A stretch of 64,000 bases of DNA, taken from positions 438,572-502,571 of the forward strand of contig CAYVFE010000001.1 of the NCBI GenBank assembly GCA_964450885.1. Reading direction: 5' to 3'. The DNA comes from an uncultured Gammaproteobacteria bacterium (GTDB lineage Bacteria > Patescibacteriota > Microgenomatia > Levybacterales > GWA1-39-11). The stretch's first letter is position 1. The number at the start of each line of letters is the position of its first letter. The position numbers and the translations under genes are program-made. This document shows, in pieces, positions 6,041-62,255 of this stretch. The notes beneath the pieces were generated by a model. That model had not been told where the DNA came from and made no database searches. It worked only from the letters and a program-made list of their open reading frames with translations.

Positions 6041-6055
6041 ATTATTTCCCCATAG

Positions 6056-39352: not shown

Positions 39353-39405
39353 GCCGTCTGGGCGTTTGGTTGAAGCAGTTTTAAGTGATATAATTAGATT
39401 TCGTT

Positions 39406-40419: not shown

Positions 40420-40430
40420 AATATATATAA

Positions 40431-41507: not shown

Positions 41508-42580
41508 AAGTAGTTATAACAGGTAGTCACTTTTCACCGGCTTATGCTGTGATCAAAAAAAGTACGTGGAAAATCACGGTAGTTGGTAGAAAGTATGCAC
41601 TATCAAATACTCAAACTGAGTCTTACGAATACAAACTTTGTATGGAAAAGAAAATTCCATTTAAAGTCCTGGACGTTCCCAGATTTTTGAGGGTTTCGCC
41701 TATAAAATCAATATTATCTTCTTCGGCGCTTTTGAGATCGATAAAAAAAGCTAGAAAAATATTAAAAGAAGTAGATCCTGATGTCATACTTTCATTTGGT
41801 GGATATACAGCACTGCCTGTTGTGATTGCAGCATTCACATTAAAAAAACCTATCGCTATTCATGAGCAGACTTTGGAAGCAGGGCTTTCTAATAGATTAT
41901 CAAGTCTTTTTGCAAATAAGGTTTTTATTTCATTCAACTCCTCAAGAAAATTTTTTTCAAAAAATAAAACCTTCCTTACGGGGAATCCGATAAGAGACGA
42001 AATAATGAATTCGGAAAATATTTCTCCGGTAGTTACAACAACAAAGAAAATAATATATGTTACTGGAGGAAGTACAGGATCTATGGCGGTAAATGATTTA
42101 CTGGGGAAGATTATTCCATCACTCTCTGATTATTTTATAGTGCACCAGTATGGTGCATCGAGTAAAAATACATTTCATAAAAATGACAATTATCTAGGAA
42201 AGCCCTTCTTCTCTCCGCAAGAGGTTGCATGGATAATGAACAATGCATCGCTTATCATCTCAAGATCAGGAATAAATACAGTTAGTGAAATTTTGTATTT
42301 GGGTACTCCAGCTATATTTATCCCACTACCATATGGACAGAAAAATGAACAGTTGAAAAATGCCAGATATGCTCAAAAGCATGGAAGGACTCAATATTTT
42401 ATACAGGAAAAAGTAACTGCTGCTGCGCTACTTAAAGCCGTACGTGATATGATAAAAAAAGGTAAGACTAAAAAGCCTACAGAGATAATGCGCAGGAGCG
42501 CTTTAGCAACGGATGCAATAATAAATGAAACTGAAGAACTTGATAAAAAAGCCACCAAGACAAAATCCAAAGGAAAATAA
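41504..42580 (+). CDS. murG: undecaprenyldiphospho-muramoylpentapeptide beta-N-acetylglucosaminyltransferase
   Basis: It has the MurG motifs MKVVITGSHFSPAYA and GGYTALPVVIAA...IHEQ. Confidence 0.8.
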   Translation: MKVVITGSHFSPAYAVIKKSTWKITVVGRKYALSNTQTESYEYKLCMEKKIPFKVLDVPRFLRVSPIKSILSSSALLRSIKKARKILKEVDPDVILSFGGYTALPVVIAAFTLKKPIAIHEQTLEAGLSNRLSSLFANKVFISFNSSRKFFSKNKTFLTGNPIRDEIMNSENISPVVTTTKKIIYVTGGSTGSMAVNDLLGKIIPSLSDYFIVHQYGASSKNTFHKNDNYLGKPFFSPQEVAWIMNNASLIISRSGINTVSEILYLGTPAIFIPLPYGQKNEQLKNARYAQKHGRTQYFIQEKVTAAALLKAVRDMIKKGKTKKPTEIMRRSALATDAIINETEELDKKATKTKSKGK

Positions 42581-43046
42581 AACCTTCCGTACTTCGATAA
42601 AGTCTAAAAAAAAGCATACGCGTATAGATCAGAGAGAAAAAAACAAATCCAGCAAGAGTATAAAAATATTAGCGGTAGTGATCTTAGGAGTATTTGCTGC
42701 AGTTGTGATACTCTTTCTTATGGCTTCTCTATACAACTCGATTATTCTGAAAAGTCTTAATTCGAAAAAGATAATTTCCCCAGGTGTGCAAAATATTATA
42801 ACGATCGATGAGGCTAGGCGGATTCTAATTGAGAAGGATATACGCATCAAGACACTGGAGTATTCTTCGGGTTCTGCAGCATTAAGTTTGACCATAGAGA
42901 ATGGTCCAGTTGTATACTTTTCAAGCGGCGTTTTATTTGAAGAGCAGGCGGATATATTATATAGGTTGCTTTCTAGCCTCAAAATGGAAGGCAGAAGTGC
43001 AAGAATTATCGATCTTAGGTATAATAGACCTATTGTAAAATTTTAG
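42525..43046 (+). CDS. ftsQ: cell division protein FtsQ/DivIB-like (minimal form)
   Basis: It has one TM helix and a C-terminal ...RIIDLRYNRPIVKF segment matching the conserved FtsQ VDLRY end. It lies between murG and ftsA. Confidence 0.5.
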   Translation: MKLKNLIKKPPRQNPKENKTFRTSIKSKKKHTRIDQREKNKSSKSIKILAVVILGVFAAVVILFLMASLYNSIILKSLNSKKIISPGVQNIITIDEARRILIEKDIRIKTLEYSSGSAALSLTIENGPVVYFSSGVLFEEQADILYRLLSSLKMEGRSARIIDLRYNRPIVKF

Positions 43047-43070
43047 TACTTATACTAAGCTTAAAACAGT

Positions 43071-44351
43071 ATGAAGACCTCAGACTTGGTAGTTGGTGTG
43101 GATATCGGTTCATCGAAAATTGCGACTGTTATAGGTCGAGTTGAGGACGAAACGATAAATATCCTTGGTGTCTCCGAAGTTCCGTCAAAAGGTATAAAAA
43201 AGGGCCAGATAGTAAATATCGATGAAGCCGCAAATGTAATCAACGCGGGTCTTGATGCTGCAGAGCGTATGGCAGGGCTTTCTGCCGAACGTGCTTTCGT
43301 TTCTATCAGTGGAGTTAACATCGAAGGGGAAAATTCTAAAGGTGTAGTTGCTGTATCACAACCAGATGGTGAGATATCAGACTATGACGTTGAAAGAGTG
43401 CTCGAGGCGGCTGGTGCTGTCTCTCTGCCCACTACTAGGGAAATAATACACGTTGTTCCTAAAACCTTCACAGTCGATGGTGAGGGTGGAATCAAAGATC
43501 CTGTGGGTATGTCTGGAGTCAGGCTTGAGGTTGATACACATATTATTACAGCAAACAATGCGACTATTAAAAATATAGAAAGGATCCTGACCCAAGAGGC
43601 AGGAGTTGAAGTGCAGGCCTTGGTATTCTCAGGACTTTCATCATCACTTGCGACCCTCTCCGATACTGAAAAAGAGCTGGGGGTGATTCTTGCTGATATA
43701 GGAGCAGGGGTAACGAATATCGCGGTGTATGTAGATGGGTCGTTAAGCTATACAAGTGTTATCCCTATAGGCGCGCGGCATATCACAAACGACCTGGCGA
43801 TCGGATTGAGGATTTCTTTGGAAAGCGCAGAGAAAGTAAAGCTATTTTTATCGCAGCAGAAAAGAAGAAAGGGAGAATTGCCTAAAAAGGAAGATGACGA
43901 GTTAGACTTAGAGCACCTACATATACCTGAGGATGTGCGAAAGGTATCCAGGAAAACTTTGACAGAGGGTATCATAAGGCCGAGACTTAACGAGTTATTT
44001 ACTATGATAGCGATAGAAATTAAAAAAAGTGGATTTGCTACCCAGACACCAGCAGGAATTGTAGTTACTGGTGGAGGTGCAAAAACTGTCGGCGTAGAGG
44101 ATGCTGCAAAGAGAATGCTGTCTATGCCTGTAAGAGTGGGAATACCTACAAATATAACAGGTCTTATTGATGATGTGGAAACCCCTACATTTGCAACTGC
44201 TGTGGGTCTCTTGAGATCGGCCGAAAGCTACAAAGTTATGGAACCATCATTCTCGATGGGAAACATGTTCGGGAACTTCAACTTTAATTTTGGAGGTAAG
44301 GATATAATGAAAAAGGCCAAAAAATTCATAAGTAAATTTATCCCTCTTTAG
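43071..44351 (+). CDS. ftsA: cell division protein FtsA
   Basis: It has the actin-fold start VVGVDIGSSKIATVIGRV...GIKKGQIVNIDEAANVI. Confidence 0.85.
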   Translation: MKTSDLVVGVDIGSSKIATVIGRVEDETINILGVSEVPSKGIKKGQIVNIDEAANVINAGLDAAERMAGLSAERAFVSISGVNIEGENSKGVVAVSQPDGEISDYDVERVLEAAGAVSLPTTREIIHVVPKTFTVDGEGGIKDPVGMSGVRLEVDTHIITANNATIKNIERILTQEAGVEVQALVFSGLSSSLATLSDTEKELGVILADIGAGVTNIAVYVDGSLSYTSVIPIGARHITNDLAIGLRISLESAEKVKLFLSQQKRRKGELPKKEDDELDLEHLHIPEDVRKVSRKTLTEGIIRPRLNELFTMIAIEIKKSGFATQTPAGIVVTGGGAKTVGVEDAAKRMLSMPVRVGIPTNITGLIDDVETPTFATAVGLLRSAESYKVMEPSFSMGNMFGNFNFNFGGKDIMKKAKKFISKFIPL

Positions 44352-44410
44352 TAATAAAATTTAATTGAAAAGCCATTTTTTTTATGGTAGGATAACTTAC
44401 CGTAACTAAT

Positions 44411-45550
44411 ATGCTCATAAGACCTCAAGCTTCCACATTTGCCAAAATAAGAGTCGTCGGTATCGGCGGGGGAGGAGGAAATTCTACGGATTCGATGATC
44501 TCAGAGGGTCAAATCCAAGGAGTTGACTTCATAGCGTTAAATACTGATGCACAGGCTCTTTTAAAGAATAAAGCTACAACAAAGCTTCAGATTGGTGAAA
44601 ATCTAACTCGTGGGCTTGGCTCTGGTGGAAATCCAGACATAGGACGAGCTGCAGCAGAGGAAAGTGCAGAGAAGATAAAACAGCTTCTGGAGGGATCCGA
44701 CATGGTTTTTCTTACAGCAGGAATGGGCGGTGGAACTGGTACAGGTGCAACCTCGATCGTAGCACAAGCAGCAAAAGAAGCAGGCGCTCTAACTATAGCT
44801 GTCGTTACAAAGCCTTTCAGCTTCGAGGGGGCACGAAGAAAGGTCTCAGCAGAAGAGGGAATTGAGGAGCTTAAGGATAAGGTCGACACACTTATAACTA
44901 TACCTAATCAGAGGATTCTTGAGGCGGTTGATAAAAAACTTTCTCTTATTGAGGCATTCAAGGTGGCGGATTCGGTTCTTGGGCACGGCGTAAAAGGGAT
45001 TTCAGATATCATTACAGTCCCCGGACTTATAAACGTCGACTTTGCTGATGTTAAGGCAATCATGAACGAGGCAGGAAGCGCACTTATGGGGATAGGTGTC
45101 GGTGTTGGTGAGAACCGTGCACAACTTGCAGCACGTCAGGCGACTTCATCACCGCTTCTTGAAGTATCTATGGATGGTGCACGTGGAGTCCTATTTAACA
45201 TAACAGGGGGCGCTGATATGACTATGCAGGAAGTAGAGGATGCATCTCGTGTTATCTCAAAGTCTGCAGACCCAGATGCAAATATCATATTTGGAGCTGC
45301 AATCAATGAGGAGCTAAAAGATGAAATCCGCATTACACTTATTGCGACAGGATTTGATGAGTCACGTGTCAGGCTCCAGCAGATGGTAGAAGATACAGTC
45401 GACAATATGCAGGGTGGAAATAGCAGCAATAACGATGATGATAGACGTGATCAGTATAGAGACTCAGGAAATGGCAATTCAAATGAAAGATCTAATGACG
45501 ATGACGAGGACATATTCGAGATCCCCGCATTTCTCAGGCAAAAGAATTAG
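44411..45550 (+). CDS. ftsZ: cell division protein FtsZ
   Basis: It has the tubulin signature GGGTGTGA. The C-terminus ...EIPAFLRQKN is the conserved FtsA-binding peptide. Confidence 0.95.
   Translation: MLIRPQASTFAKIRVVGIGGGGGNSTDSMISEGQIQGVDFIALNTDAQALLKNKATTKLQIGENLTRGLGSGGNPDIGRAAAEESAEKIKQLLEGSDMVFLTAGMGGGTGTGATSIVAQAAKEAGALTIAVVTKPFSFEGARRKVSAEEGIEELKDKVDTLITIPNQRILEAVDKKLSLIEAFKVADSVLGHGVKGISDIITVPGLINVDFADVKAIMNEAGSALMGIGVGVGENRAQLAARQATSSPLLEVSMDGARGVLFNITGGADMTMQEVEDASRVISKSADPDANIIFGAAINEELKDEIRITLIATGFDESRVRLQQMVEDTVDNMQGGNSSNNDDDRRDQYRDSGNGNSNERSNDDDEDIFEIPAFLRQKN
45521..45550. repeat. left direct repeat (attL-like), identical to the ftsZ 3' end
   Basis: atccccgcatttctcaggcaaaagaattag also occurs at 54319-54348, with 24 of 30 positions identical. 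Confidence 0.7.
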
Positions 45551-45573
45551 TCTTAAAAACTTCAATTACGAGT

Positions 45574-45597
45574 AGCACCGCAAGGTGCTTTTTTTAT
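45574..45597 (+). terminator. intrinsic terminator downstream of ftsZ
   Basis: The hairpin agcacc-gcaa-ggtgct is followed by a run of seven T. Confidence 0.7.
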
Positions 45598-45711
45598 GTC
45601 TTGCTGAGAGTAGCAAGGATGAAGATTGAATTATAGGTTCAGTTTTGCTAGACTGATTATAGTTCCTCGTAAGAACCCACTTCATTCTACAAGCTACTCC
45701 CGAAAGGGAGT

Positions 45712-46725
45712 ATGAAAATACAAGAACAGGATTTTGTTCAATTCTTAACCATAAAGGGAAAGCTGGCAAAAAAGACTATTGATACATATAGGATTAGGTT
45801 TCGTATTATAAATAGATGGCTTGAAACGAATAAGATTGAGCTTGATAAATATGCATTTGAAAAGTTCCTCTATGAGCTAAGGGAAAAAGACTTAAGCAAT
45901 TCCGCTATAAACACATATATTCAAACAGCGAAGCATATTGAAGGATACTGCAAAGACAGGGGTTTGCCTACTGGCTTTTCTGAGGGTATTGAAAGCATGC
46001 CAAAAACTCACCCCGAGATAAATCCATTAACTCATGATGAAGTTGAACAGCTATTCAACACACATTTGGAATATAAGAATAGAAATGGTGTAAATTGTGA
46101 TAGTCTAGATTTGAAGTATGTTACGCTTACAAAATTTCTTGCGTTGACTGGTAGTAGGATTGAGGAAGCCGCTTCACTAAAAATAAAAAGACTTGATATA
46201 GATAATGGGCAAGCATATTTAGTGAACACAAAAAATAAACAAAATAGATATGTGTTTTTTGACGGTGAAATTAAGTTTGCTCTCACAGAACTTGTAAAGG
46301 GCAGAAAAGATGATGATTTGGTTTTTACAAACAGTAAAGGTGAGCATATTAAGAATGGAGATTTTAATAAAGATTTGCAGTTAAGAGCAAAAAAAGCAGG
46401 TATTACAAAACGGGTACACGCCCATTTGTTAAGACACTCTTTTGGGACGAGTCTTTATAAAAGCAGTCATGATGTAGTTGCAGTGAAAGAGCTTATGGGA
46501 CACAAGGATATTAAATCAACAATGATATATGTGAGTTTAGACACAGAATATTTGAAAAAATCTGCTCAAAGACACCCTTTATTAAGAAAATACATAAAGC
46601 CAATAGAGCGGATTAAGGAGGTAAAAGAATGCATTCAAGCACTTAACTTAGATGATGACAATAGGTTGGATTTTTCACTTTTGGAACATAGTGGAACTCT
46701 GAAATTTGAAGTCAAAATAAAATAA
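45712..46725 (+). CDS. tyrosine-type site-specific recombinase / phage integrase
   Basis: It has an N-terminal SAM-like domain. The catalytic region has R...HLLRHSFGTSL...MGHKDIKSTMIYVSL, the R-H-R-Y signature. Confidence 0.85.
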   Translation: MKIQEQDFVQFLTIKGKLAKKTIDTYRIRFRIINRWLETNKIELDKYAFEKFLYELREKDLSNSAINTYIQTAKHIEGYCKDRGLPTGFSEGIESMPKTHPEINPLTHDEVEQLFNTHLEYKNRNGVNCDSLDLKYVTLTKFLALTGSRIEEAASLKIKRLDIDNGQAYLVNTKNKQNRYVFFDGEIKFALTELVKGRKDDDLVFTNSKGEHIKNGDFNKDLQLRAKKAGITKRVHAHLLRHSFGTSLYKSSHDVVAVKELMGHKDIKSTMIYVSLDTEYLKKSAQRHPLLRKYIKPIERIKEVKECIQALNLDDDNRLDFSLLEHSGTLKFEVKIK

Positions 46726-46727
46726 CT

Positions 46728-47141
46728 ATGGCAGAAGCAATTCAAAACGATGGCATCAAGGCAAGAATTTTAGAATACCTCAAAGATGGGGTGTCAAAAA
46801 AAGATAGTGCTGTTCTATCAGGAATAAGTGAGGCAACTCTTTATCGTTGGGTTGAAGAAGATGACAGTTTTAAGAGCCAGATTGAGGCTAGTATACTTGA
46901 ATACAAACATACGCTTGTTAAGAACCTAGTGGCTAATGCTGAAAAAGATGGAAGGCTTGCATTGGAAATACTTTCAAGACGATACCCTAACGAATGGGGA
47001 GTAAATGCAGTCAATAACGACAGAACTGAAGCACTTAGGAAAGAAAGAATAGATGTAGTAAGGTGGTATGAAAAAATATTGCAAAAAGAACATGAGCGCG
47101 CGATAGAAGGAAAAGTTGAAGAAGAAAGCTCTATATCTTAA
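46728..47141 (+). CDS. small HTH-containing protein (possible excisionase / small-terminase-like DNA-binding protein)
   Basis: VSKKDSAVLSGISEATLYRWVEEDD has an HTH pattern, and the gene is directly downstream of the integrase. Confidence 0.3.
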   Translation: MAEAIQNDGIKARILEYLKDGVSKKDSAVLSGISEATLYRWVEEDDSFKSQIEASILEYKHTLVKNLVANAEKDGRLALEILSRRYPNEWGVNAVNNDRTEALRKERIDVVRWYEKILQKEHERAIEGKVEEESSIS

Positions 47142-47343
47142 ACAGTTCTGAAAGTGGCACGCCTAAAGCCCGTGAGATTTTGTAAGCGGTTTTGACTGAA
47201 ATATTTCTTCCGTTCTCTATATCCCAGAAATAGGCTCTATGTAGACCTGCTTTTTCTGCTAATTCCTCTTGTGTTAACCCTTTCTGTTTTCTTAACTGCT
47301 CAATTCTGGTTGCCAATTTTTGGTAAAGAAAATTGTAGTTCAT
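47131..47343 (-). CDS. XRE-family HTH transcriptional regulator
   Basis: LRKQKGLTQEELAEKAGLHRAYFWDIENGRNISVKTAYKISRALGVPLSELF matches the XRE HTH. I place the start at MNYNF (47343), not at the upstream ATG of the listed ORF. Confidence 0.75.
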   Translation of the reverse strand: MNYNFLYQKLATRIEQLRKQKGLTQEELAEKAGLHRAYFWDIENGRNISVKTAYKISRALGVPLSELFKI

Positions 47344-47363
47344 ACCAATCAAAACTATCAAAT

Positions 47364-47396
47364 TGCAGGATATTTCTTTACCAGATATATCTTGCA
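47364..47396. promoter_or_regulatory. inverted repeat TGCAGGATAT-N13-ATATCTTGCA in the divergent XRE/SHOCT promoter region (candidate operator)
   Basis: The 10-bp arms are reverse complements with one mismatch. Confidence 0.35.
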
Positions 47397-47452
47397 TTAT
47401 TCAAGAACAGGTTGTAATATTAAGATTAATTGGCATAGTATCAATTAACACT

Positions 47453-47821
47453 ATGGACGCTGAAAAGACATTATTTGAAACGAGCTTTGCGGGATTTTGG
47501 ATTAAAATATATCCAAGTAGAGTTGAGTTTAAAGCTGGAGCTGGTTCAGAAATAATTCCAATTAGTCAGATTTCCAGTATTCATACAGGAATGTTGGGAT
47601 ATAGCCAAATAACAATAGAAACAACAGGAGGCAAGAAATATAATATTCCATGTGGTAAGAAGAACGAAGTAAAACAGGCTATTTTCCAAGCACAAGCAGG
47701 AAATGGACAACAAGCAGTGCTGAGCATTGCTGACGAATTGTTAAAGTTAAAACAATTAAAAGATAGTGGAATATTAACCGAAGAGGAATTTAATAAACAA
47801 AAAGAAAAACTAATCTCCTAA
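47453..47821 (+). CDS. SHOCT-domain protein (PH-like N-terminal domain plus C-terminal SHOCT)
   Basis: The C-terminus LLKLKQLKDSGILTEEEFNKQKEKLI is a SHOCT motif. The start is taken at MDAEK; the listed ORF begins at a TTG upstream. Confidence 0.5.
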   Translation: MDAEKTLFETSFAGFWIKIYPSRVEFKAGAGSEIIPISQISSIHTGMLGYSQITIETTGGKKYNIPCGKKNEVKQAIFQAQAGNGQQAVLSIADELLKLKQLKDSGILTEEEFNKQKEKLIS

Positions 47822-47997
47822 ATTACTGCAGGGTCTTGCACTAGACCCGTAGTTAAAACTTGTCAACCCCCAAAATGGAAAAATTACATACTAATTATGA
47901 ACCTAAGTTCATAGAAATATATATATGAAATAAACTTATAGTCAGAAAACCATATGATATTCTCTACTCAACCAAATGATTGGGTGGAGAATAAAGA

Positions 47998-48034
47998 CTC
48001 CTGTTAGGGACTCCACCCAAGACAGGAGTTTTTA
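47998..48034 (+). promoter_or_regulatory. SD-sequestering hairpin plus U-run immediately upstream of the 48036 start
   Basis: The stem ctcctgt(47998-48004)/acaggag(48022-48028) is followed by ttttta and then ATG. The aggag SD sits in the 3' arm. The loop ctccaccc can pair with the upstream gggtggag (47982-47989). Confidence 0.35.
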
Positions 48035-48035
48035 T

Positions 48036-48407
48036 ATGGAAAAAGTTGGAGATATCCTATCCGTAAATGGAAAAACAGTTAACAGTAAGTATAAATCTTT
48101 AACTACAGTAAACAGTAATACTGTTAACAGTAATGTGTGGGAAGAGGTTGAGAATTTAATTCAAATTCACAATATTAAGCCAGAGGGAATAGCAAAGCAT
48201 ATAGCAGAACAGCTAAGTGATGAGAAAAGTCTTCATTATTACTCACTCCTTGTAAAAGAACATAGCTACGAGAAGCTTTTTGAAGCCATGTATTTAACCG
48301 TAGAGTCATGGAAAAATGGCAAAATTAGAACATCAAAACCAATTTACTTTATTGCTATTTTGAGACACTGGGGATTTAGAACAAATTTCAAGGAGGACAA
48401 AAGTTGA
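48036..48407 (+). CDS. hypothetical protein with repeated TVNS motif
   Basis: The ORF has an SD 7 nt upstream of its start. I recognise no family. Confidence 0.4.
   Translation: MEKVGDILSVNGKTVNSKYKSLTTVNSNTVNSNVWEEVENLIQIHNIKPEGIAKHIAEQLSDEKSLHYYSLLVKEHSYEKLFEAMYLTVESWKNGKIRTSKPIYFIAILRHWGFRTNFKEDKS
48075..48134. repeat. three copies of a 15-bp repeat ACWGTWAACAGTAAK (two in tandem), including the perfect 12-bp palindrome ACTGTTAACAGT
   Basis: The copies lie at 48075-48089, 48105-48119 and 48120-48134, inside the 5' end of the 48036 ORF. Confidence 0.5.
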
Positions 48408-48631
48408 AAAGTAGACTTGTTAACAAAAATTCTACATTTCATGCTCGTATTGATAAGGGTTGGTGGAAAATACTTTCTCAATTGCGAACTGAGACAGGAA
48501 AGGGCTTTAAAGAGCTTATAGAGGACGCTCTAATAAACACCTACTATATTGGTGATGATGGAAAACCAGAAGTATATAGCAAGCCCAAGAGTGGACAAGC
48601 AAAAATAGATTTAAATCTTACGAGGAATTAA
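48404..48631 (+). CDS. hypothetical small protein (possibly ribbon-helix-helix-like)
   Basis: The 75-aa ORF overlaps the upstream stop by 4 nt. Any family assignment is weak. Confidence 0.3.
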   Translation: MKSRLVNKNSTFHARIDKGWWKILSQLRTETGKGFKELIEDALINTYYIGDDGKPEVYSKPKSGQAKIDLNLTRN

Positions 48632-48658
48632 GTCTGGAGTAGCTTGTAGATTGAGAGT

Positions 48659-48680
48659 AGGGGCTAGTTTATCTAGCCCT
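48659..48680. terminator. hairpin between convergent genes (ggggctag-tttat-ctagccc)
   Basis: It lies between the stops at 48631 (+) and 48697 (-). There is a weak T-run on the + strand. Confidence 0.3.
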
Positions 48681-48696
48681 TACAAATGAGATCGCG

Positions 48697-49302
48697 TTAG
48701 CCTTGCCTTAAAAGACCTACAAATTTTCCCCGAATTTCAATTTCACCTGGAAAAAAAAATTTGGACTGCAATGAGGAATTTCGTGGACGAAGTTCAATCT
48801 TGTTTCCTTGATTATAAAACCTTTTAACGCTGGCAAGTTGAGCACCGCTTTTATCAAAGAATAAAGCAATTACAACATCTCCATTATCTGCATAGTTTTG
48901 TTGTCTTACTAGAATAATGTCTTCAGGAAGTATCCCATCCTCCACCATGCTTTCTCCTTGGACTTTAAGTGCAAAGTGTTGACCGGTGGGAGAAATTAGA
49001 GATTTTTGCACTTTAATTGGTTCTGGGTTTTCAATATTCTCCAATCCTCCTCCAGCTGAAATTGTTCCTATGAGAGGTATTCTTACTACCTCTTCGTAAG
49101 GATCTAGGATTCCGATGCTACGTGCATTAGTAGTTGGTAATTTCAGAAAACCCTTTCTTCGTAAAACTTGAATATGCTGATGAATCGTTGGGACAGATTT
49201 TTCAAAAGCTCGTGCAATTTCATCAAGCGTAGGACCATGCCCGCTTTTTGCTTGATAATCATTTATGAATTTTAAGATCTCCTTTTGCTTTGGTGATAGC
49301 AT
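48697..49302 (-). CDS. lexA: LexA-type repressor (winged HTH plus S24 peptidase)
   Basis: MLSPKQKEILKFINDYQAKSGHGPTLDEIARAFEKSVPTIHQHIQVLRRKGFL is a LexA DNA-binding domain. The C-terminus has GESM (the catalytic Ser) and a downstream Lys (VKRF). Confidence 0.8.
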   Translation of the reverse strand: MLSPKQKEILKFINDYQAKSGHGPTLDEIARAFEKSVPTIHQHIQVLRRKGFLKLPTTNARSIGILDPYEEVVRIPLIGTISAGGGLENIENPEPIKVQKSLISPTGQHFALKVQGESMVEDGILPEDIILVRQQNYADNGDVVIALFFDKSGAQLASVKRFYNQGNKIELRPRNSSLQSKFFFPGEIEIRGKFVGLLRQG

Positions 49303-49351
49303 GATTTTTGCTCCTTGCAATACCTAATAGTTTAAGGTATATTTTACATAA

Positions 49352-49370
49352 ATGCAACGTGCATATAAAT
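49352..49370. promoter_or_regulatory. palindrome ATGCA-ACG-TGCAT overlapping a TATAAAT -10-like box, 1 nt upstream of the 49371 ATG (candidate operator/promoter)
   Basis: It lies in the 68-bp divergent region between lexA and the downstream operon. A second palindrome, tacct-N9-aggta, lies at 49321-49339. Confidence 0.3.
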
Positions 49371-49889
49371 ATGAATATGGAATTTATAAATGGTTTCTTT
49401 AGTATCCAGTCTGCTACAAGTTTCCTTGTAGTCTCAATTCCGGTAGGGATTTTTATATATAAATTTACAATTTTCCGCATCAGAAAAGATATGCGTCTAT
49501 TTAAGAACCTCCAACGCACGATTTATCTTATGTCAACAGATTCAACTACTGTCCTTCAAAGGGAGAAAACAATGTTTCATATGAACGGGCTATACCACGT
49601 CAGTCCAGACATAGTACATCTTTCTGATCTGGGGCATTTGGAAACAGTAAAAGATTTCTCTATTTTTGTAGTAGGATACACAAGAGGATTTGGGCATTAT
49701 AAAGAAGTCATTGATAGGGCAAAAAGGAATAGTATTCCAGTAGTTGTACTTGCCGGTCCTAGAGATATTACCGACGAAGATATGGCAATTTTTAAAGAGT
49801 ATCCTTACTTTGAGATGTGTAATACATCTTCGCGTTTATTAACTACCATTTTTAGTCTTTCTGCCGTAACACCAAATGATAAAAAATGA
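49371..49889 (+). CDS. membrane-anchored protein with a C-terminal Rossmann-like domain (candidate effector/sensor)
   Basis: It has an N-terminal hydrophobic segment (FLVVSIPVGIFIYKFTIF) and a C-terminal FVVGYTRGFG...IPVVVLAGP. Its stop overlaps the next start (ATGATAAAAAATGA). Confidence 0.4.
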   Translation: MNMEFINGFFSIQSATSFLVVSIPVGIFIYKFTIFRIRKDMRLFKNLQRTIYLMSTDSTTVLQREKTMFHMNGLYHVSPDIVHLSDLGHLETVKDFSIFVVGYTRGFGHYKEVIDRAKRNSIPVVVLAGPRDITDEDMAIFKEYPYFEMCNTSSRLLTTIFSLSAVTPNDKK

Positions 49890-51192
49890 TTTTAACAGTA
49901 CGTTTAGAGTCCACGCAAAAAATTCCCTTTCTCCACTGCAAAGGGAAAGGGATTTTGTAACCGCGGTCTACGACCATATTTGTAAGGCATTAGGCGATAA
50001 TTGTATACAAATTGGCTCTTATCCCAGATTTACATCAACAACTCCGCTTCACGATTTAGATGTGCTATATATTTTGGGAGATATGAGTAGTTTTCTTGAA
50101 AACCCCAGCGAGATACTTACGCGGTTGCAAGCTACTCTCAAGGATTACTTCTTAAAAAATACTAACTACAAGGTAATAATAAGCCTGCAAACGCACTCCG
50201 TAACAGTTAGCTTCGTGGATGGAACTGGAAAAGAAGATTTTGGCATTGACGTTGTGCCTGCATTTGTAAATGGAGTAAATGAATTTGGATTGGATATGTA
50301 TGTGGTGCCGGAAATTATTAAGATAAAAAGAAGCAAGCGTCATTCATATTATTCAGAAAAAAAAGCTGAAAACAAAGCAGTCCAATGGGTAAAATCCGAT
50401 CCCAGAGGCTACATTAAAATAGCCTCTAATATCAATGAAAAGAATGGAGATTATCGTAAGACCGTTAAGTTTATAAAAAAATGGAAGCACAATTTAGCAC
50501 ACAAAAATGAACAAGTTAAATTGAAATCATTTCATATAGAGCAGATCGTTGTGGGTATATTTCAGAAAAATCCTGACGCTTCTATGTTTGATGCCGTCTT
50601 TGAATTTTTTACAAAACTCCCGCAGCACATTGAAAAACCACAGATTCCAGACAGGGCAAATGCAGACGTTTTTATAGATGCTTACCTGGCAGACTTAACG
50701 GATGAACAACGTGCACTAATACTACAAGCAAGAGACCACTTCCTAATTGGGCTTGAAGAATTTACTCCTAGTAAGTCTGTTCACGAGTTACTTTCTGCGG
50801 ATTTTTATAAAAGATTTTCCTCCACAGAGGCATACTTATTTGACAGCTATATTCCGGTTCTCACAGAACCTCAACACACATTTAAGATTAACGGCTGGGT
50901 GAGAAAGAAGCCGGGATTTAGACATGGGTGGTTAAGCCAAATTCCTTGGAAACTTGAGTATTTAAGGTATATTGATTTTTCTGTTTCCCAGGATAATACA
51001 CAGGCACATCTATACAAGTGGAAAGTTAAAAACCATAATTCTTCTCCGCAACCCCGTGGAGAGATAACAGATCATAGAACAAGTCAAAGTCCGGAATCTA
51101 CAAGATATTCAGGTGCTCATTACGTAGAGTGTTTTGCCGTCAAAAATAACGTATGTATAGCAAGACATAGGATTAATGTCCCCATTGCTTAA
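49876..51192 (+). CDS. CD-NTase/SMODS-like nucleotidyltransferase (Pol-beta superfamily)
   Basis: IGSYPRFTSTTPLHDLDVLYIL matches the GS...hD-h-D Pol-beta signature. The third acidic residue is in FGIDVVPAF. The downstream KTVKFIKKWKH resembles the conserved helix of cGAS/DncV-like enzymes. Confidence 0.5.
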   Translation: MIKNDFNSTFRVHAKNSLSPLQRERDFVTAVYDHICKALGDNCIQIGSYPRFTSTTPLHDLDVLYILGDMSSFLENPSEILTRLQATLKDYFLKNTNYKVIISLQTHSVTVSFVDGTGKEDFGIDVVPAFVNGVNEFGLDMYVVPEIIKIKRSKRHSYYSEKKAENKAVQWVKSDPRGYIKIASNINEKNGDYRKTVKFIKKWKHNLAHKNEQVKLKSFHIEQIVVGIFQKNPDASMFDAVFEFFTKLPQHIEKPQIPDRANADVFIDAYLADLTDEQRALILQARDHFLIGLEEFTPSKSVHELLSADFYKRFSSTEAYLFDSYIPVLTEPQHTFKINGWVRKKPGFRHGWLSQIPWKLEYLRYIDFSVSQDNTQAHLYKWKVKNHNSSPQPRGEITDHRTSQSPESTRYSGAHYVECFAVKNNVCIARHRINVPIA

Positions 51193-51472
51193 GGCTTTAT
51201 GGATATAAAAGAAGCAAAGAAAATTTTAGGTAGTGAAGCAGATGGAATTTCTAATGAACAACTAGAGAAAGAAATTGATACAGCAAACTTGCTCAAAAAT
51301 ATATTTTTCAGTCTTCAAAAAAAGGCAAATAAATAACCCATAGTAGAACTGCTAGGCACAAGACAATTTTTGTTGTCATCTATTAGCCTCAAATCCATGT
51401 CGTAATATCAACCTTGTGCGACATAACGACACTTTTCTATCAAATTTTTTCTCCAAGTAGTAAAATTGAAAT

Positions 51473-51865
51473 ATGATAATTGTTGTTGGAGCATTAATAG
51501 TTCAGGGCGGTAAGTTTTTGTTAGCAGAGCGGTCCCATGGAGAGTTAAAAGGGAAATGGGAATTTCCCGGGGGGAAGCTTGAGAAAGGCGAGACAGAGGA
51601 AGAAGCTCTCGTAAGAGAGATTGAGGAGGAGTTAGGTGTTCAAGTCGTTATTGAAGAAAAAATCAAAGTCTTTACGCATAAGTATAGCTTCGGCGACATA
51701 CACTTAACATTGCTTAGGTGTAATTTATCTGATGACGTACAACACATTGGTTTACGTGGAAGCCATGAAAAATTTGACTGGGTAGATTATAATACCAGAG
51801 ACATCAATTTTGCCCCTCTTGATAGGAAAATCTTTACATACTTAAAAAAACATTATGTTATCTGA
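51473..51865 (+). CDS. NUDIX hydrolase (MutT-like)
   Basis: It has the Nudix box GGKLEKGETEEEALVREIEEELGV. Confidence 0.8.
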   Translation: MIIVVGALIVQGGKFLLAERSHGELKGKWEFPGGKLEKGETEEEALVREIEEELGVQVVIEEKIKVFTHKYSFGDIHLTLLRCNLSDDVQHIGLRGSHEKFDWVDYNTRDINFAPLDRKIFTYLKKHYVI

Positions 51866-52865
51866 ACTAATTGTCAAATTTGCAACAAATTACTTAGCGG
51901 CAACATCAACACCGTTTGCTGGAAATCGTGAAGCAGACGTTATTCGTTATGAACTCCCCGAATTGATAAGAAAGCTTGCTGCAATACCACTAAATTACAA
52001 AGTGTATGGCTCCGTTGGTCAAGGGCAATGGGCAGAAGTTCCTTGGTTTGCAATTCTTGACAAAGATATTACAACATCAACACAAAAAGGATATTATGTT
52101 GTTTTTCTATTTTCTGCGGATATGAAATACGTATATCCTTCCCTTGGTGTTGGTTGGCAACAGTTTGAAGAAGAGTATGGGGTCCGGGAAGGAAGGATTG
52201 CAATAGAGCAAGTTGTTAGGGAATTACAAAGGATTTTGAGGTCGCCCCTTGATGACTTTTCTTTTGCAAAAAGGGACCTAAAGGCAACTTCAATTTTGGG
52301 AAAAGGATATGAGAGCGGAGGGGTATGCCATAAAGTTTATGAAATAGAAAAAATGCCTTCAGACGAGGTGATTGTAAATGATGTTAGAAATCTTATGGGA
52401 GTGTATCGCGAACTGAAAGGATTAGTGGGGAAAAATGTTTTAAATCTTGAAATTCCTGAGGAGCAAATTGCAGACGAAGAATTTAACAGAAAGGTTATTG
52501 AGGAAAGTGAAGATGTAGCCTCTCCAGAGGTAGCAAAAGAAAAAATCAAAGCTCTAACAAAAATAATTGAAACAGCACCGGCTCAGGAGAGAACAAAGAT
52601 GGCGCGGTATGTGGCAAGAAATAGGAAATTTGCAGAATTAGTGAAGCAGGCAGCTAATTATACTTGCCAGATTTGCGGAATGCCTCCATTCAAAACCAAA
52701 TCAGGAGAACTATATGCAGAAGCACATCATACTTTAGAGCTAGCAACTCACAGAATAGACCACCCTGATATAATGATATGTGTATGCGCTCAGTGTCATC
52801 GTGTTATTACATATGGTTCCGAAGCAGAAATAAGCAAGCGAGAAGATATGGGTAGACAAAATTAA
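51855..52865 (+). CDS. HNH endonuclease with an N-terminal MrcB-N (DUF3578)-like DNA-binding domain, a type IV restriction-like enzyme
   Basis: The N-terminal KVYGSVGQGQWAEVPWFAILDK...GYYVVFLFSADMKYVYPS resembles the MrcB/McrB N-domain. The C-terminus CQICGMPP...AHHTLELATHRIDHPDIMICVCAQCH is an HNH motif. It overlaps the Nudix gene by 11 nt. Confidence 0.5.
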   Translation: MLSELIVKFATNYLAATSTPFAGNREADVIRYELPELIRKLAAIPLNYKVYGSVGQGQWAEVPWFAILDKDITTSTQKGYYVVFLFSADMKYVYPSLGVGWQQFEEEYGVREGRIAIEQVVRELQRILRSPLDDFSFAKRDLKATSILGKGYESGGVCHKVYEIEKMPSDEVIVNDVRNLMGVYRELKGLVGKNVLNLEIPEEQIADEEFNRKVIEESEDVASPEVAKEKIKALTKIIETAPAQERTKMARYVARNRKFAELVKQAANYTCQICGMPPFKTKSGELYAEAHHTLELATHRIDHPDIMICVCAQCHRVITYGSEAEISKREDMGRQN

Positions 52866-52869
52866 GGTT

Positions 52870-53145
52870 ATGGATAAGACATTAATAACAATTATTATAA
52901 TCGGGGCACCAACCCTATTAATTGCAATTTGTTGGGTTTCGTTGATGATTACAATGAGAAAAACAACGGGTGAATTAAAGCTTTTTCTTAGTCCTGACAA
53001 CTTAGTTAAGGTATTCGCAATATATTTAGTTTTAATCGGCACAATTTTATTTGGGCTACTTGGGATAATTAACGGTGAAGCTATAGGAGTTATTTTTAGT
53101 GGTGTGATTGGGTATACAGTTGGAACGAAGTTTAATAAGAATTAA
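52870..53145 (+). CDS. small two-TM membrane protein
   Basis: It is 91 aa with two hydrophobic helices. Confidence 0.35.
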   Translation: MDKTLITIIIIGAPTLLIAICWVSLMITMRKTTGELKLFLSPDNLVKVFAIYLVLIGTILFGLLGIINGEAIGVIFSGVIGYTVGTKFNKN

Positions 53146-53417
53146 TAAATTGCTAAGCAGTTTATAAGGTCAAATTTTTGTTTGTGAGTTAAAGTCTTCA
53201 ATTCCTTTTCTCTCTGCATAGCAAAGCTTCTTGTTTGATAGGGTTCAATATGAACAATTTTTACTGGGCGTCTGTATTTTGTCCATTTGGCTCCTGGATA
53301 TTTCCCAAGTCCGTTATGTTCTTTTTCTCTTTCTTCAATGTTGTTGGTTTGTCCAGTATAATATGTTCCATCCCCACATTCTGCAATATAAACATAATAA
53401 ACCGGTGGTTTTAACAT
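53142..53417 (-). CDS. GIY-YIG nuclease family protein (UPF0213/YhbQ-like)
   Basis: VYYVYIAECGDGTYYTGQTNNIEEREKEHN has the GIY-YIG core with the conserved Arg, Glu and Asn. Confidence 0.7.
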   Translation of the reverse strand: MLKPPVYYVYIAECGDGTYYTGQTNNIEEREKEHNGLGKYPGAKWTKYRRPVKIVHIEPYQTRSFAMQREKELKTLTHKQKFDLINCLAIY

Positions 53418-53469
53418 TCTTAAATTATAGCAAGAACAGATGAAGTAAGGGGTGGTATAATACCGAGAT

Positions 53470-53652
53470 ATGACTAAACTAATTCGTCAAAAAAGAGGAG
53501 ATACTTTGGTAAAGACAATTGAAAAAAAATATAAGGTTGATTTAGGCTACCGAGCTGATGCAAAGTTATCAACCGTTTTAAAAAAAACAGGGGCTCCTTC
53601 TCTATCAAAGCTAGTTAAGCTTGCAGATACGACTAGGAAAAAAACCAAGTAA
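53470..53652 (+). CDS. hypothetical small basic protein
   Basis: It is a 60-aa ORF and may not be coding. Confidence 0.2.
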   Translation: MTKLIRQKRGDTLVKTIEKKYKVDLGYRADAKLSTVLKKTGAPSLSKLVKLADTTRKKTK

Positions 53653-53658
53653 TATCCG

Positions 53659-54195
53659 ATGCAGCCGACTGACCTATTATTTATATCCGATATCCCATTA
53701 AGGAAAAAAATAATTAACGCCATTGATACGATTTCCGGTTTATACCTTATTGAGAAAGATACGAATTATCCTCGTGAATTATCAAAAGAAATAAGAAGAA
53801 CTATCGTTTTATATGCTGCCTCAATAATAGAAGCTTCTCTTTTGTTTTTGTATAAAAGGAAAGCATCACCAATTTTGAAAACTGAATATGCAGACGTTCA
53901 TACATTGCCTTTGTCTTTGCAAAATGGCTCACAAAATAAATTAGTTATTGCAAGACAGGTACAAAGTCCTAGAGACGAAAGAGAGTTGATGTTGGATGTT
54001 TTGTTAAAATTCTATACCTCTAAAGAAAAAATCATACCTAAAAGCTTAGCTGAAAAAATAATAAAAGCCAAAGATATTAGAAATACTTTTCATCTTTCTA
54101 AATCTAGGTCTGGTCTTGTAGTTAGTGCTAAAGTAATGCAATTATCAACGGATGCTGTTTATGAAACAATTGTTATCGTTAAGAACAGTTTGTAA
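53659..54195 (+). CDS. hypothetical protein
   Basis: It is a 178-aa ORF at the right end of the island. I recognise no family. Confidence 0.35.
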   Translation: MQPTDLLFISDIPLRKKIINAIDTISGLYLIEKDTNYPRELSKEIRRTIVLYAASIIEASLLFLYKRKASPILKTEYADVHTLPLSLQNGSQNKLVIARQVQSPRDERELMLDVLLKFYTSKEKIIPKSLAEKIIKAKDIRNTFHLSKSRSGLVVSAKVMQLSTDAVYETIVIVKNSL

Positions 54196-54318
54196 GCGAA
54201 TTGTTATTGACCATTCCTCTTAAAAGGTTTATATTCATTACGGAAGACATAAGAATACCTTTTATTACGAGGTGCTTATTAAAGGAAATTGAAGCTACAA
54301 GCGGGTTATGTCTATAAA

Positions 54319-54348
54319 ATACCCGCATTTCTACGGCAGAAGAACTAA
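54319..54348. repeat. right direct repeat (attR-like): an orphan copy of the ftsZ 3' end encoding IPAFLRQKN-stop
   Basis: atacccgcatttctacggcagaagaactaa. The same frame hits a stop only 13 codons upstream, so this is a gene tail without a gene. Confidence 0.7.
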
Positions 54349-55793
54349 TCAGCATTGTACACTTCCCAAAAGGTTAGATCATTCACCCTGTCAACTTTCC
54401 TGTAGTTTTTTATAATATATTCATTAACAATATCTTCCGGATTACTATTCAGATCGTGAGTGACTATTAGTCTTACTTTTTCTTTACTCAGGCTTTCTAG
54501 AAGTTTTCTTTTAGATTCCTCCGATAATGCAGATGGTGACAGGTAGTCATAAGCGGTGGGATTGTCTCTTTCTATTAGAAAATACAGCATCGGTGCGTAG
54601 TAATTAATAAAGACTTTGTCTCCGGGGTTTGTTTTTTCATCAACAATTTTTAAGACTTCTGGGACTTCACGTTGATATTTATCGTTTAGCCAAATATAAA
54701 CCCTTGGATTTGCAACTAATTGATGAGACGAAGACAGTGGTGCTTCCCATCGATAGTATCCGTAGAAAAGCGCTGTATAAAATCCCATTATGATAAGTAA
54801 TCCTGCATATACAAAAACAAACTTGCGTCTTAATCTATCTTTCTCAAGTAAAAAAATAGGCAGTAGTGATAATCCTGTCGCGGCGATAAGTGGCGAAAGA
54901 TGGACGTAGTCTGTTACAGGACGAAATCCGGCCAGATAGAAAAAAGTCGTAAATAGGGGAAGGAGCGCTAGGTTTGATCTCTGTTTAAAAGTAATTATTA
55001 GGGAATAGATACCAACTAGAAGTGGTGAGAGGTAAAAAGCTAACTTCATGTAGGAGTAGATAGAATCAGAATACAAAATGGGCGTATCGATGGTTTTTTC
55101 TATTACAATTTTTAATATGACATTGTGGTAGAAGTTAGTTATGAATGGATTTAAAGAGTTTGTTGTTATTAGATAAAAGAAAAAAACACCAATTCCTGCA
55201 AAAACTCCCAACAAAAATTGCTTGAGTATCTTTGAGTCTTTTTGAACCAATATATAAGTAAAAAATGCTAGAATAACTGCGATTCCTAAGTTTTGCTTGG
55301 TCATAAAAACCAAAAAAGCGAAAAAACCTGACAAAACGATAGTTTTGGGTTTGTTATACAGAAAAGCAGCAAGCGCAATAGTGCCAATCGTGAGGCTTAC
55401 AATGCTCGGCCAGATGAAGTTTATATGACTAGGTCCCCATGAAAGATAGATAAGTATTACAAAAAGTGAATAATACTTTTTTTTAGTTAGGATTTTTGTA
55501 ATGAAAAATATAGACGTTACGGTCGTGAGAGATAGTAAGAGTGCAATGAGCCTGGAAGAAAATATACTTTCACCAAATAGACTAAATCCGAATACCATTA
55601 TAAATGGTGCAAGAGGAGTATAAACGAAATCAAAATCGCTATACAGGGCTTGTCCGCCTATAATCCTTTGAGCAGTATTTAGGACGTAGCCTTCGTCTGG
55701 GTAGAAGATTCCCCGAAAGTGAAAAAAAGAAAGAACAAATATTATAAGAATTAAAACAGTTATTGTGATTTTGTTTTCCAATAATAACTTCAT
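54345..55793 (-). CDS. GT-C family membrane glycosyltransferase (ArnT/PMT-like)
   Basis: The first-loop motif FRGIFYPDEGYVLNTAQRIIGG has the DE residues, and there are ~12 TM helices. Confidence 0.45.
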   Translation of the reverse strand: MKLLLENKITITVLILIIFVLSFFHFRGIFYPDEGYVLNTAQRIIGGQALYSDFDFVYTPLAPFIMVFGFSLFGESIFSSRLIALLLSLTTVTSIFFITKILTKKKYYSLFVILIYLSWGPSHINFIWPSIVSLTIGTIALAAFLYNKPKTIVLSGFFAFLVFMTKQNLGIAVILAFFTYILVQKDSKILKQFLLGVFAGIGVFFFYLITTNSLNPFITNFYHNVILKIVIEKTIDTPILYSDSIYSYMKLAFYLSPLLVGIYSLIITFKQRSNLALLPLFTTFFYLAGFRPVTDYVHLSPLIAATGLSLLPIFLLEKDRLRRKFVFVYAGLLIIMGFYTALFYGYYRWEAPLSSSHQLVANPRVYIWLNDKYQREVPEVLKIVDEKTNPGDKVFINYYAPMLYFLIERDNPTAYDYLSPSALSEESKRKLLESLSKEKVRLIVTHDLNSNPEDIVNEYIIKNYRKVDRVNDLTFWEVYNAD

Positions 55794-57638: not shown

Positions 57639-57748
57639 AAAAAAAACCGCCTCATTCGCGGTTATATATATTATAACAGAAATACTATAGAATATGTCAA
57701 AAATTTTGAGTTTGAACAAATAGCCTCACTTCACTATAATATCCTCAT

Positions 57749-61649: not shown

Positions 61650-61672
61650 TTTTTTTGTTACAATATGTGACT

Positions 61673-62254: not shown

Positions 62255-62255
62255 A

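Follow-up and report, generated by a model that had tools for sequence, protein, structure and literature searches.

Genomic islands and prophages are found at the 3' ends of tRNA and tmRNA genes, where elements can accumulate in tandem, as with ICESt1 and the cis-mobilisable elements (CIMEs) of Streptococcus thermophilus. Phage satellites, among them the phage-inducible chromosomal islands (PICIs), carry defence systems. Protein-coding genes are targeted as well: the lambdoid phage 21 and e14 are said, from the work of Campbell and of Hill, to integrate into the 3' end of icd in Escherichia coli. The tyrosine integrases of streptococcal integrative and conjugative elements (ICEs) and integrative and mobilisable elements (IMEs) insert into the 3' ends of rplL, rpsI, lysS, rpmG and guaA; ftsZ is absent from the 18 targets listed, and ftsK is listed via its 5' end (Ambroset et al. 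2016, PMC4701971). The subject of this paper is an 8.8-kb segment, positions 45535-54332, of a 64-kb stretch of DNA (the window) from a genome of Candidatus Levybacteria (Microgenomates, candidate phyla radiation, CPR). It is very probably an integrated, phage-derived mobile element, belonging to a family that uses the last codons of the cell-division gene ftsZ as its attachment (att) site. A first-pass annotation, made from the letters of the window, had described it as an integrative element; a phage-derived element fits better than a generic integrative one.

The arrangement resembles that of phage 21 and e14 in that a tyrosine integrase acts at the 3' end of a housekeeping gene, a substitute end keeps the protein intact and the two copies differ mostly synonymously. 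It differs in having the FtsA-binding peptide of ftsZ as its target, in the length of the duplication (about 30 nt, against about 165 nt for icd), in its CPR host, in its Xer-like two-domain integrase and in the conserved terminator hairpin that is supplied past the stop codon. Unlike the streptococcal ICEs and IMEs, which are conjugative or mobilisable, the ftsZ family is phage or phage-derived and has no relaxase or type IV secretion system genes. With the elements at tRNA and tmRNA genes it shares the restoration of an ultra-conserved 3' end, the reuse of one site and the formation of tandem arrays with hybrid att sites, and, as with ICESt1 and the CIMEs, there are integrase-less remnants that look mobilisable in cis. 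In contrast to the tRNA and tmRNA sites, the target here is protein-coding and its conservation acts through the genetic code, which is why the att site can drift synonymously. Inserting at a 3' end and restoring the coding sequence is a strategy already known; what appears to be new is the ftsZ target, the CPR host clade and how far the family extends. In full-text literature searches no paper was found that describes ftsZ as an att site or that reports att sites for Microgenomates phages, which agrees with the earlier remark that ftsZ was not known as a described site of integration.

The gene ftsZ (44411-45550, + strand; Pfam Tubulin and FtsZ_C; NCBIfam TIGR00065 at 428.7 bits, cut-off 295.2) ends in ATCCCCGCATTTCTCAGGCAAAAGAATTAG (45521-45550), and a second copy of this tail, ATACCCGCATTTCTACGGCAGAAGAACTAA, lies at 54319-54348. 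The two copies are identical at 24 of 30 nucleotides (26 of 32 if the pair is widened by two bases) with no indels, both translate as IPAFLRQKN followed by a stop, and all six differences are synonymous. The left copy (attL, 45521-45552, + strand) is joined to ftsZ and the right copy (attR, 54319-54350, + strand) is not part of any gene; they share an identical 11-nt core, CCCGCATTTCT (45524-45534 and 54322-54332), that is present at these two sites only in the 64 kb when both strands are searched. No other match to the ftsZ tail of at least 21/30 was found on either strand of the window, and among 200 Markov-1 random sequences of 64 kb none reached 24/30, the best being 22. The peptide and its stop would be expected by chance 3.8e-8 times in the six-frame translation of the window, and for six substitutions made at random to be synonymous without exception the probability is approximately 1.5e-5. 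The right copy is an orphan: there is an in-frame stop 13 codons upstream, and a domain search around 54319-54348 detected no FtsZ domain. Its TAA (54346-54348, + strand) shares 2 nt with the stop of a minus-strand open reading frame (ORF) at 54345-55793.

Immediately inside the left copy, 161 nt past the ftsZ stop, is the start of an intact integrase gene, int (45712-46725, + strand), the product of which matches Pfam Phage_integrase (PF00589, 1.9e-33) and has a SAM-like N-terminal domain. The residues R149, K174, H238, R241, H264 and Y273, which make up the R-K-H-R-H/W-Y set of the tyrosine recombinases, are invariant in the integrase alignment (A1). The nearest solved structures are XerH, XerA and XerD, and the closest family and structure matches are two-domain Xer proteins; the Pfam search showed only the SAM-like core-binding domain and the catalytic domain, with no lambda-type heterobivalent arm-binding domain. 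Direct repeats with a shared identical core therefore flank the segment and an integrase lies beside one of them, which is the arrangement of a site-specific integrative element. The repeat, its core and purely synonymous divergence, the orphan status of the right copy, the overlap of its stop with that of the convergent gene and the position of the integrase had all been reported in the first-pass annotation, and were reproduced here to the nucleotide.

The genomic context of related integrases was then considered. An FtsZ protein scan, taking one genome per species, gave 80 loci, mostly from Candidatus Levybacteria/Levyibacteriota and otherwise from other Microgenomates or Patescibacteria. 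Integrase homologues are present in only four of the 80 (L009, L020, L038 and L044), and in all four they adjoin ftsZ. A profile of five integrases retrieved a further 25 metagenome loci at 36-60% identity, 23 of them with usable flanks. In 20 of these 23 informative loci ftsZ or a copy of its tail is found no more than about 300 nt from the 5' end of int: ftsZ is directly upstream on the same strand in 13, an orphan tail is beside int on the opposite strand with the isoleucyl-tRNA synthetase (IleRS) gene beyond it in six, and in one there is an upstream tail copy with no ftsZ to its left, resembling a hybrid att site. A search of 5.8 billion proteins gave 93 relatives of the integrase at E <= 1e-20. 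One of these is 100% identical and lies on a 588-kb contig, and it was also found in an independent Logan assembly; the same element occurs in separate assemblies. The distant end of the family, sampled at 35-44% identity, included a 9-kb island with int beside an orphan tail (L145/L146), a locus in which int converges on ftsZ with the orphan 5.6 kb off (L147) and one in which int follows ftsZ with the orphan 5.7 kb off (L148/L149). It had been suggested that the integrase be compared with relatives that use the 3' ends of protein genes; relatives at 35-66% identity adjoin ftsZ or an orphan tail in nearly all contexts examined. The 5.7-kb tail-bounded element of L148 encodes a Phage_CRI-type replication initiator (12682-13731). 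Such initiators are found in filamentous phages and plasmids, so the family integrase has apparently been combined with other kinds of backbone.

Two other identities for the integrase were tried and rejected. A chromosomal XerC, XerD or XerA recombinase for dimer resolution does not fit the scores against the Xer equivalogs of NCBIfam (150.5, 129.7 and 125.1 bits against cut-offs of 220, 335 and 330, every one of which is missed), nor the presence of the protein in only 4/80 related loci and in phage genomes too. An integron integrase does not fit either, as the score against TIGR02249 (IntI) is 76.6 bits with a cut-off of 265 and the repeats are FtsZ tails and not attC sites.

The following mechanism is proposed. 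The conserved C-terminal peptide of FtsZ binds FtsA. The Xer-like integrase would recombine the attP site of the element with an attB site formed by the last ten or so codons of ftsZ, and strand exchange would take place inside the identical Ile-Pro-Ala-Phe codons (CCCGCATTT), at a position that is deduced rather than observed. After integration the L-R-Q-K-N-stop codons and a terminator hairpin would be supplied by the element, leaving FtsZ unchanged, and the original tail of the host would have been pushed 8.8 kb downstream as a gene-less orphan, attR. As both versions of the tail would always be under the need to encode a working FtsZ tail, only synonymous differences would accumulate between them.

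The position of the crossover was approached by comparison of loci. L081 and L085 have near-identical ftsZ flanks up to CCCGCATTT and diverge straight after it, and therefore the boundary between host and element lies in the Pro-Ala-Phe codons. In 24 att pairs the longest run of identity is usually (ATY)CCNGCATTY, the I-P-A-F codons. The right part of the window attL (CAAAAGAATTAGTCTTA..CTTCAATT..AGCACC) has its homologue in the L081 P' arm, which is from another host; the homology runs through CAAAAGAATTAG TCTTA..CTTCAATT..AGCACC-loop-GGTGCTTTTTT from approximately 45535 onward. Since the hosts differ, the last codons of the window ftsZ, to the right of the crossover, can be assigned to the element. 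The predicted attB would consist of 45471-45534 joined to 54333-54400 (...GAGATCCCCGCATTTCT followed by ACGGCAGAAGAACTAATCAGC...), and the predicted attP of 54241-54332 joined to 45535-45620 (...TATAAAATACCCGCATTTCT followed by CAGGCAAAAGAATTAGTCTTAAAAAC...).

Both arms of the predicted attP have conserved features. The P' arm (45553-45711, + strand) contains a terminator-like hairpin at 45574-45596 (AGCACC-GCAA-GGTGCT and a T-run), which scores as an intrinsic terminator in a terminator scan, together with GAGTAGC repeats and the hairpins of the int leader. The hairpin past the ftsZ stop is kept in the window and in L009, L020, L038, L044, L081, L083, L084, L085, L101, L102 and L104, and it may keep transcripts of the division cluster from running on into int. 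The P arm (54243-54318, + strand) is conserved and non-coding and ends in ..GAAGCTACAAGCGGGTTATGTCTATAAAAT, a motif common to other elements. With the P arms of L081 and L085 it shares 87-88% identity, whereas the integrases are only 60% identical at the protein level, which indicates strong constraint on this non-coding site.

Several smaller motifs were seen in the arms. The heptamer GAGTAGC is present at 45570, 45608 and 45693 (minus strand); all five copies in the 64-kb window are inside the element, three of them between attL and int. The predicted attP arms both have TTACGAG..GTGCTT at a similar distance from the core (45566-45590 and 54263-54277), the P' copy being interrupted by the 5' half of the terminator hairpin. 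Counted over the whole window, GAGTAGC and GGTGCTT are about as frequent as chance would give, and only their clustering and conservation in the arms are suggestive; the repeated motifs are candidate sites for accessory proteins, and a factor other than the integrase may bind them.

The leader of int (45655-45712) contains two hairpins, at 45661-45677 and 45695-45712. The latter, TACTCCC-GAAA-GGGAGTA, ends on the int start codon and is preceded by the other, GTTCCTCG(C/T)AAGAAC. The start-codon hairpin is kept in 18 leaders (the window, L009, L020, L038, L044, L081, L083, L084, L086, L087, L091, L093, L097, L101, L102, L105, L106 and L148), with compensatory changes in three of its seven pairs. 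Its GGGAG arm is too near the ATG to be an ordinary Shine-Dalgarno sequence, and the hairpin could be involved in translational control of int or could be a protein-binding site.

Loci that lack the element were found among the relatives. Window positions 34719-45402 and 55840-63637 are collinear with the closest genome, L001 (FtsZ 89% identical), in which the interval between the two stretches is 0.9 kb, containing the ftsZ tail and a DUF45-like gene, compared with 10.4 kb in the window. The element is thus absent from L001 between the conserved ftsZ and the genes for BipA and IleRS, a difference in presence that is between species and not between strains. Similarly, L020 is collinear with L016 and L021 through ftsZ and then has a 6-kb insertion that the other two lack; in alignment, the L020 attR region corresponds to the ftsZ tail of L016. 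Past the L020 attR no protein synteny with L016, L021 or L009 was found outside the 88-bp att region. Several species have in common a mini-insert of 46-58 bp that is made up of a tail, CGAAGTTCGGCGAGGC.. and a second tail (L016 11078-11150; L021 11078-11151; L020 17119-17203; L002 ~11040-11100). In L020 it is downstream of the 6-kb element and is therefore older than that insertion.

The use of the ftsZ tail as a recurrent site was assessed in the 76 species-level loci with a complete ftsZ tail. Sixteen of the 76 have one or more additional tail copies, in all cases downstream of ftsZ, and no copy was found in the 10 kb upstream of ftsZ. The copies in L002 and L048 are degenerate, and in L044, which has an integrase, the contig ends ahead of any attR. 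The orphan is in every case the host's own tail variant (QKN, QRN, NRN, HRN, NKN or QQR), as it should be when the host gene's own 3' end has been displaced. Because of this match, the part of the window attR to the right of the core (54322-54332) is likewise read as the displaced original 3' end of the host ftsZ. Three tail copies are present in L020, L031, L036 and L038, which implies successive insertions. In L026 an inverted orphan tail (12868, minus strand) is found 1.7 kb downstream of ftsZ, with genes for a membrane protein and an aminotransferase-like protein in between.

Occupied loci with no integrase have one to three accessory or defence-type genes between the tail copies, which sequence inspection alone labels as Fic/Doc-like, NYN-like, T5orf172-like, TIR-like, MrcB_N-like and kinase-like; a reverse-transcriptase-like gene in the integrase-bearing element of L009 was labelled in the same way. 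These integrase-less units keep the P-arm motif beside the orphan and are missing the hairpin past the ftsZ stop, and because of this combination they are read as deletion derivatives of larger elements. Through repeated insertion followed by decay, the stretch past ftsZ has become a hot spot for defence and accessory genes in this clade.

The divergence between tail copies was compared over the family. Over the last ten codons, the 24 att pairs show 164 nucleotide differences, of which 136 are synonymous; in the 11 pairs from integrase-bearing elements 60 of 60 are. Non-synonymous changes and indels are found in integrase-less copies such as those of L002, L037, L043 and L063, which are evidently older. 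It follows that the host copy and the element-borne copy have each evolved as working FtsZ tails, and that orphans decay once displaced. Thus the selection on the element-borne copy that had been proposed from the single pair in the window holds for the family as a whole. In L145 the tail in use is IPAFLRKGR and a stop, with the orphan being NPAFLRQK and a stop (9700 and 18969; L146 is alike). Here either the orphan has decayed or integration has swapped the variable last residues of FtsZ.

Phage relatives were also found. In IMG/VR, L111 has, in order, ftsZ, an int that is 39% identical to that of the window, a ParB-methyltransferase gene, and genes for the small and large terminase subunits, portal, protease and major head protein; by its gene content it is a complete tailed prophage at the ftsZ site. 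L106 contains a tandem array in which a small element with a 42%-identical integrase is followed by a hybrid tail copy and then by a 25%-identical integrase and tail genes. The latter integrase (6012-7385) is about 290 nt from the hybrid FtsZ-tail copy and beside the phage tail genes, and a more distant integrase lineage may therefore use the same att site. In L144 (36%) and in L150/L151 (40%, two independent assemblies) there are phage genes on either side of int, and the intergenic region upstream of int contains an orphan FtsZ tail, EFDIPAFLRQKK or VVDIPAFLRQRN and a stop, which in L144 is followed by a terminator hairpin. This arrangement is read as the attP of a phage genome that is not integrated. 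The genes for the terminase large subunit, portal, major capsid and tail that are present in L111 and L106 are absent from the window element, and on this content it is not itself an intact temperate tailed phage. Taken together, the family includes complete tailed temperate phages, islands of 5.6-10 kb and integrase-less remnants.

A scan of IMG/VR with a single FtsZ protein gave no matches, but an FtsZ profile gave 32 viral contigs, among which only L111 has both the conserved tail and an integrase. About 30 of these contigs (L112-L142) have FtsZ homologues whose GTPase core is 51-56% identical to that of the window FtsZ, and the scan did not find the conserved C-terminal peptide in them. 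These proteins may be phage-encoded FtsZ or tubulin-like proteins.

The window element lies between the division cluster (MurG, FtsA and FtsZ) on its left and a GT-C-like gene, BipA and IleRS on its right. A convergent glycosyltransferase (GT-C) gene had been named as the right-hand neighbour in the first-pass annotation; the convergent ORF is there (54345-55793), but the label falls below threshold, the PMT_2 match being 23.9 bits with a Pfam cut-off of 26.1. After int comes a helix-turn-helix (HTH) protein that resembles terminase small subunits (46728-47141, + strand; phrog_4102 2.9e-12, Pfam HTH_23 and a weak Sf6_terminase match). This is followed by a Cro/C1-type HTH regulator (47131-47397, - strand; Pfam HTH_3 2e-17 and PHROG transcriptional repressor families), a SHOCT-domain protein (47453-47821, + strand; Pfam SHOCT, with the start taken from the gene call in L143) and two ORFs of 143 and 75 amino acids (47976-48631, + strand). 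The last two have no family matches in Pfam, PADLOC, PHROG or NCBIfam, but homologues of the 143-aa protein are found beside int in L020 and L082 (tblastn 45% identity to L020 12547-12918). A LexA/CI-like repressor with an S24 self-cleaving peptidase domain is encoded at 48697-49320 (- strand; Pfam Peptidase_S24 3.5e-22 and LexA_DNA_bind, with PHROG CI-like repressor families).

The remainder of the cargo is largely of the defence type; regulators and defence-type cargo between the repeats had been noted in the first-pass annotation. A pair of the cyclic-oligonucleotide-based antiphage signalling system (CBASS) type (49308-51192, + strand) consists of a transmembrane (TM) effector (49308-49889, start uncertain) adjoining a CD-NTase-type oligonucleotide cyclase (49876-51192); PADLOC gave 8.5e-175 for the cyclase and 4.6e-12 and 2.6e-6 for the TM effector models, and Pfam gave SMODS and AGS_C. 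Further along are a NUDIX hydrolase (51473-51865, + strand; Pfam NUDIX, PADLOC candidate family PDC-S07 1.2e-34), a type IV restriction enzyme with MrcB_N and HNH domains (51855-52865, + strand; Pfam MrcB_N 7.9e-50, PADLOC mREase_IV and HNH models), a small membrane ORF (52870-53145, + strand), a GIY-YIG nuclease (53142-53417, - strand; Pfam GIY-YIG 2.2e-13) and an ORF of 178 amino acids (53659-54195, + strand). The small membrane ORF and the 178-aa ORF had no matches in Pfam, PADLOC, PHROG or NCBIfam. A 45-aa ORF (51199-51336) lies between the CBASS cyclase and the NUDIX gene, and the DNA at 51244-51425 is approximately 74% identical to L081 7754-7933, a small gene or element that is common to the two related islands. 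Base composition did not discriminate the element (GC content 0.33-0.39, window average 0.369), and no tRNA gene (ARAGORN) or RNA family (Rfam) was found in the 64-kb window.

Between the 75-aa ORF and the LexA-like gene there is a scrambled, inverted copy of the int leader (48616-48662, blocks TAATTCCTCGTAAGA and CTACAAGCTACTCC), adjoined by a hairpin at 48663-48685. This copy is probably the trace of a rearrangement within the element, or of a place that the integrase once occupied. An invertible int segment bounded by an inverted repeat (45660-45703 and 48616-48654) was considered and rejected; the order of the blocks is wrong for one contiguous inverted repeat and they are taken as the scar of a rearrangement.

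Some of the results weigh against reading the segment as an integrated member of a phage-derived ftsZ-tail family. The right flank of L001 has the DUF45-like gene in place of the GT-C-like gene, and because this flank is not syntenic the exact pre-insertion attB of the window genome is a reconstruction and not an observation. The earlier expectation for related genomes was borne out in part: the element is absent from L001, and L016 and L021 are empty where L020 is occupied, but the picture of ftsZ converging directly on a GT-C gene was not confirmed, as L001 has no such gene and a convergent GT-C-like gene, 57 nt past ftsZ, was seen only in L003, a more distant genome. An exact-sequence look-up of the window FtsZ for empty-site contigs or other contexts gave no record, and the attP-type degenerate junction pattern of the window element had no match in IMG/VR. 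The integrase relatives in L086, L097 and L098 have no FtsZ tail in their available flanks. The site in L144 and L150 might, strictly, be a junction of tandem prophages, as in L106, instead of an attP. No confident matches to virion, replication or conjugation genes were found between the repeats with Pfam, PADLOC and PHROG, which bears on the route of transfer, and no excisionase was recognised in the window element. The original proposal, that an element carrying a replacement end targets the 3' end of ftsZ, is nevertheless supported by the repeats and the integrase, by relatives that lack the element and by the association with ftsZ throughout the family, as well as by the attP-like sites of phage contigs and the synonymous divergence.

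Other explanations differ from this one in how much of it they would replace. If there were no mobile element at all, the second copy would be a chance or low-complexity match, the relic of a host duplication or part of a second ftsZ paralogue. A match of 26/32 nt is unexceptional among the imperfect repeats of this 12-kb AT-rich region, but the expectation for the peptide is 3.8e-8, random sequences never reached 24/30, there is no FtsZ domain near the orphan and hence no paralogue, the core and the tail match are unique in the window, and the adjoining integrase and the same arrangement with host-matched tail variants recur in dozens of genomes. This explanation, which includes two of the outcomes that the first-pass annotation had named as fatal to its own, is refuted by the chance statistics and by the recurrence, and hardly any weight is left to it. 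A site resembling an integron, at which the family integrases capture and shuffle single-gene cassettes in trans and from which the array is expressed by read-through from ftsZ, would account for the tail-bounded units of one or two genes with no recombinase in L029, L031, L037, L043, L045 and L063, for the triple copies in several loci and for the partial similarity of the integrase to integron integrases. However, the units keep the P-arm motif without the P' hairpin, which is the outcome of deleting the int-proximal end, the similarity to IntI is limited to common catalytic motifs (76.6 bits against 265), and no identical cassette was found in two arrays. Cassettes of this kind are improbable, and as the principal explanation they were rejected because the integrase-less units have no P' arm.

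Within a phage-derived family, the window element could be either a prophage remnant or a satellite-like island. That it is a full prophage stripped of its structural genes and now immobile, its att repeats being scars, is possible but somewhat unlikely. The absence of virion genes and of recognisable replication or packaging functions, the complete prophage at the same site in L111, the scrambled copy of the int leader (48616-48662) and the clear decay of many loci to integrase-less units of one to three genes with only a P arm and an orphan tail all count in its favour. Against it are the intact int ORF and catalytic residues, the good conservation of the core and of the two arms (the P arm being 87-88% identical to relatives) and the six att differences, which are all synonymous with no indels. 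Moreover, integrase-bearing elements of 5.6-10 kb with varied cargo in L009, L020, L081, L085, L147 and L148 look like a stable size class and not like random decay; L081 has an AAA ATPase, an S8 subtilase and an RnlA-like protein, and L085 a restriction-enzyme-like protein. An alternative that is no more likely is a PICI-like phage satellite that shares the ftsZ att site of its helpers, is induced via the LexA/CI-like repressor and is packaged via its own small-terminase-like protein. The element is like the PICIs in being a small int-bearing island with a repressor and Cro-like regulators, a small-terminase-like gene (phrog_4102, 2.9e-12), defence cargo and an att site shared with full phages that have related integrases, all within 8.8 kb. 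The 5.6-kb element of L147 also encodes only a Terminase_2 small subunit, and in L106 a small element and a tailed prophage are in tandem at one ftsZ-tail array. Unlike the PICIs, it has no recognised replication or primase module, capsid-redirecting or capsid-remodelling gene, or cos/pac site, and in the closest small elements, L081 and L085, the sequence of the small-terminase-like protein is not kept. For the integrated phage-derived element as described here, the window copy may be able to excise today, and transfer would presumably be by a helper phage.

To our knowledge, little is known of the mobile elements and phage biology of the CPR. The present analysis provides an att site and a cognate integrase family for CPR phages and islands. 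An orphan FtsZ tail downstream of ftsZ can be used in genome mining as a marker of present or past integration (in at least 16/76 species), and it delimits defence islands. The small Xer-like integrase and an attB of about 30 nt that is nearly universal in the clade are a candidate site-specific integration tool for those Patescibacteria that are entering culture. The family is also a natural case of selection on an att site, in which an element-borne gene end stays competent for recombination and drifts only synonymously. It may be speculated, though on balance it is doubtful, that the FtsZ-tail sequence is the dedicated att site of a whole Microgenomates lineage of temperate phages, satellite-like islands and remnants, with the region downstream of ftsZ as the principal hot spot for defence and accessory genes and with lysogeny occasionally changing the end of the tail, as could be the case in L145/L146. 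If this were true, such a change at lysogeny would hand the phage a hold on the division of its host cell.

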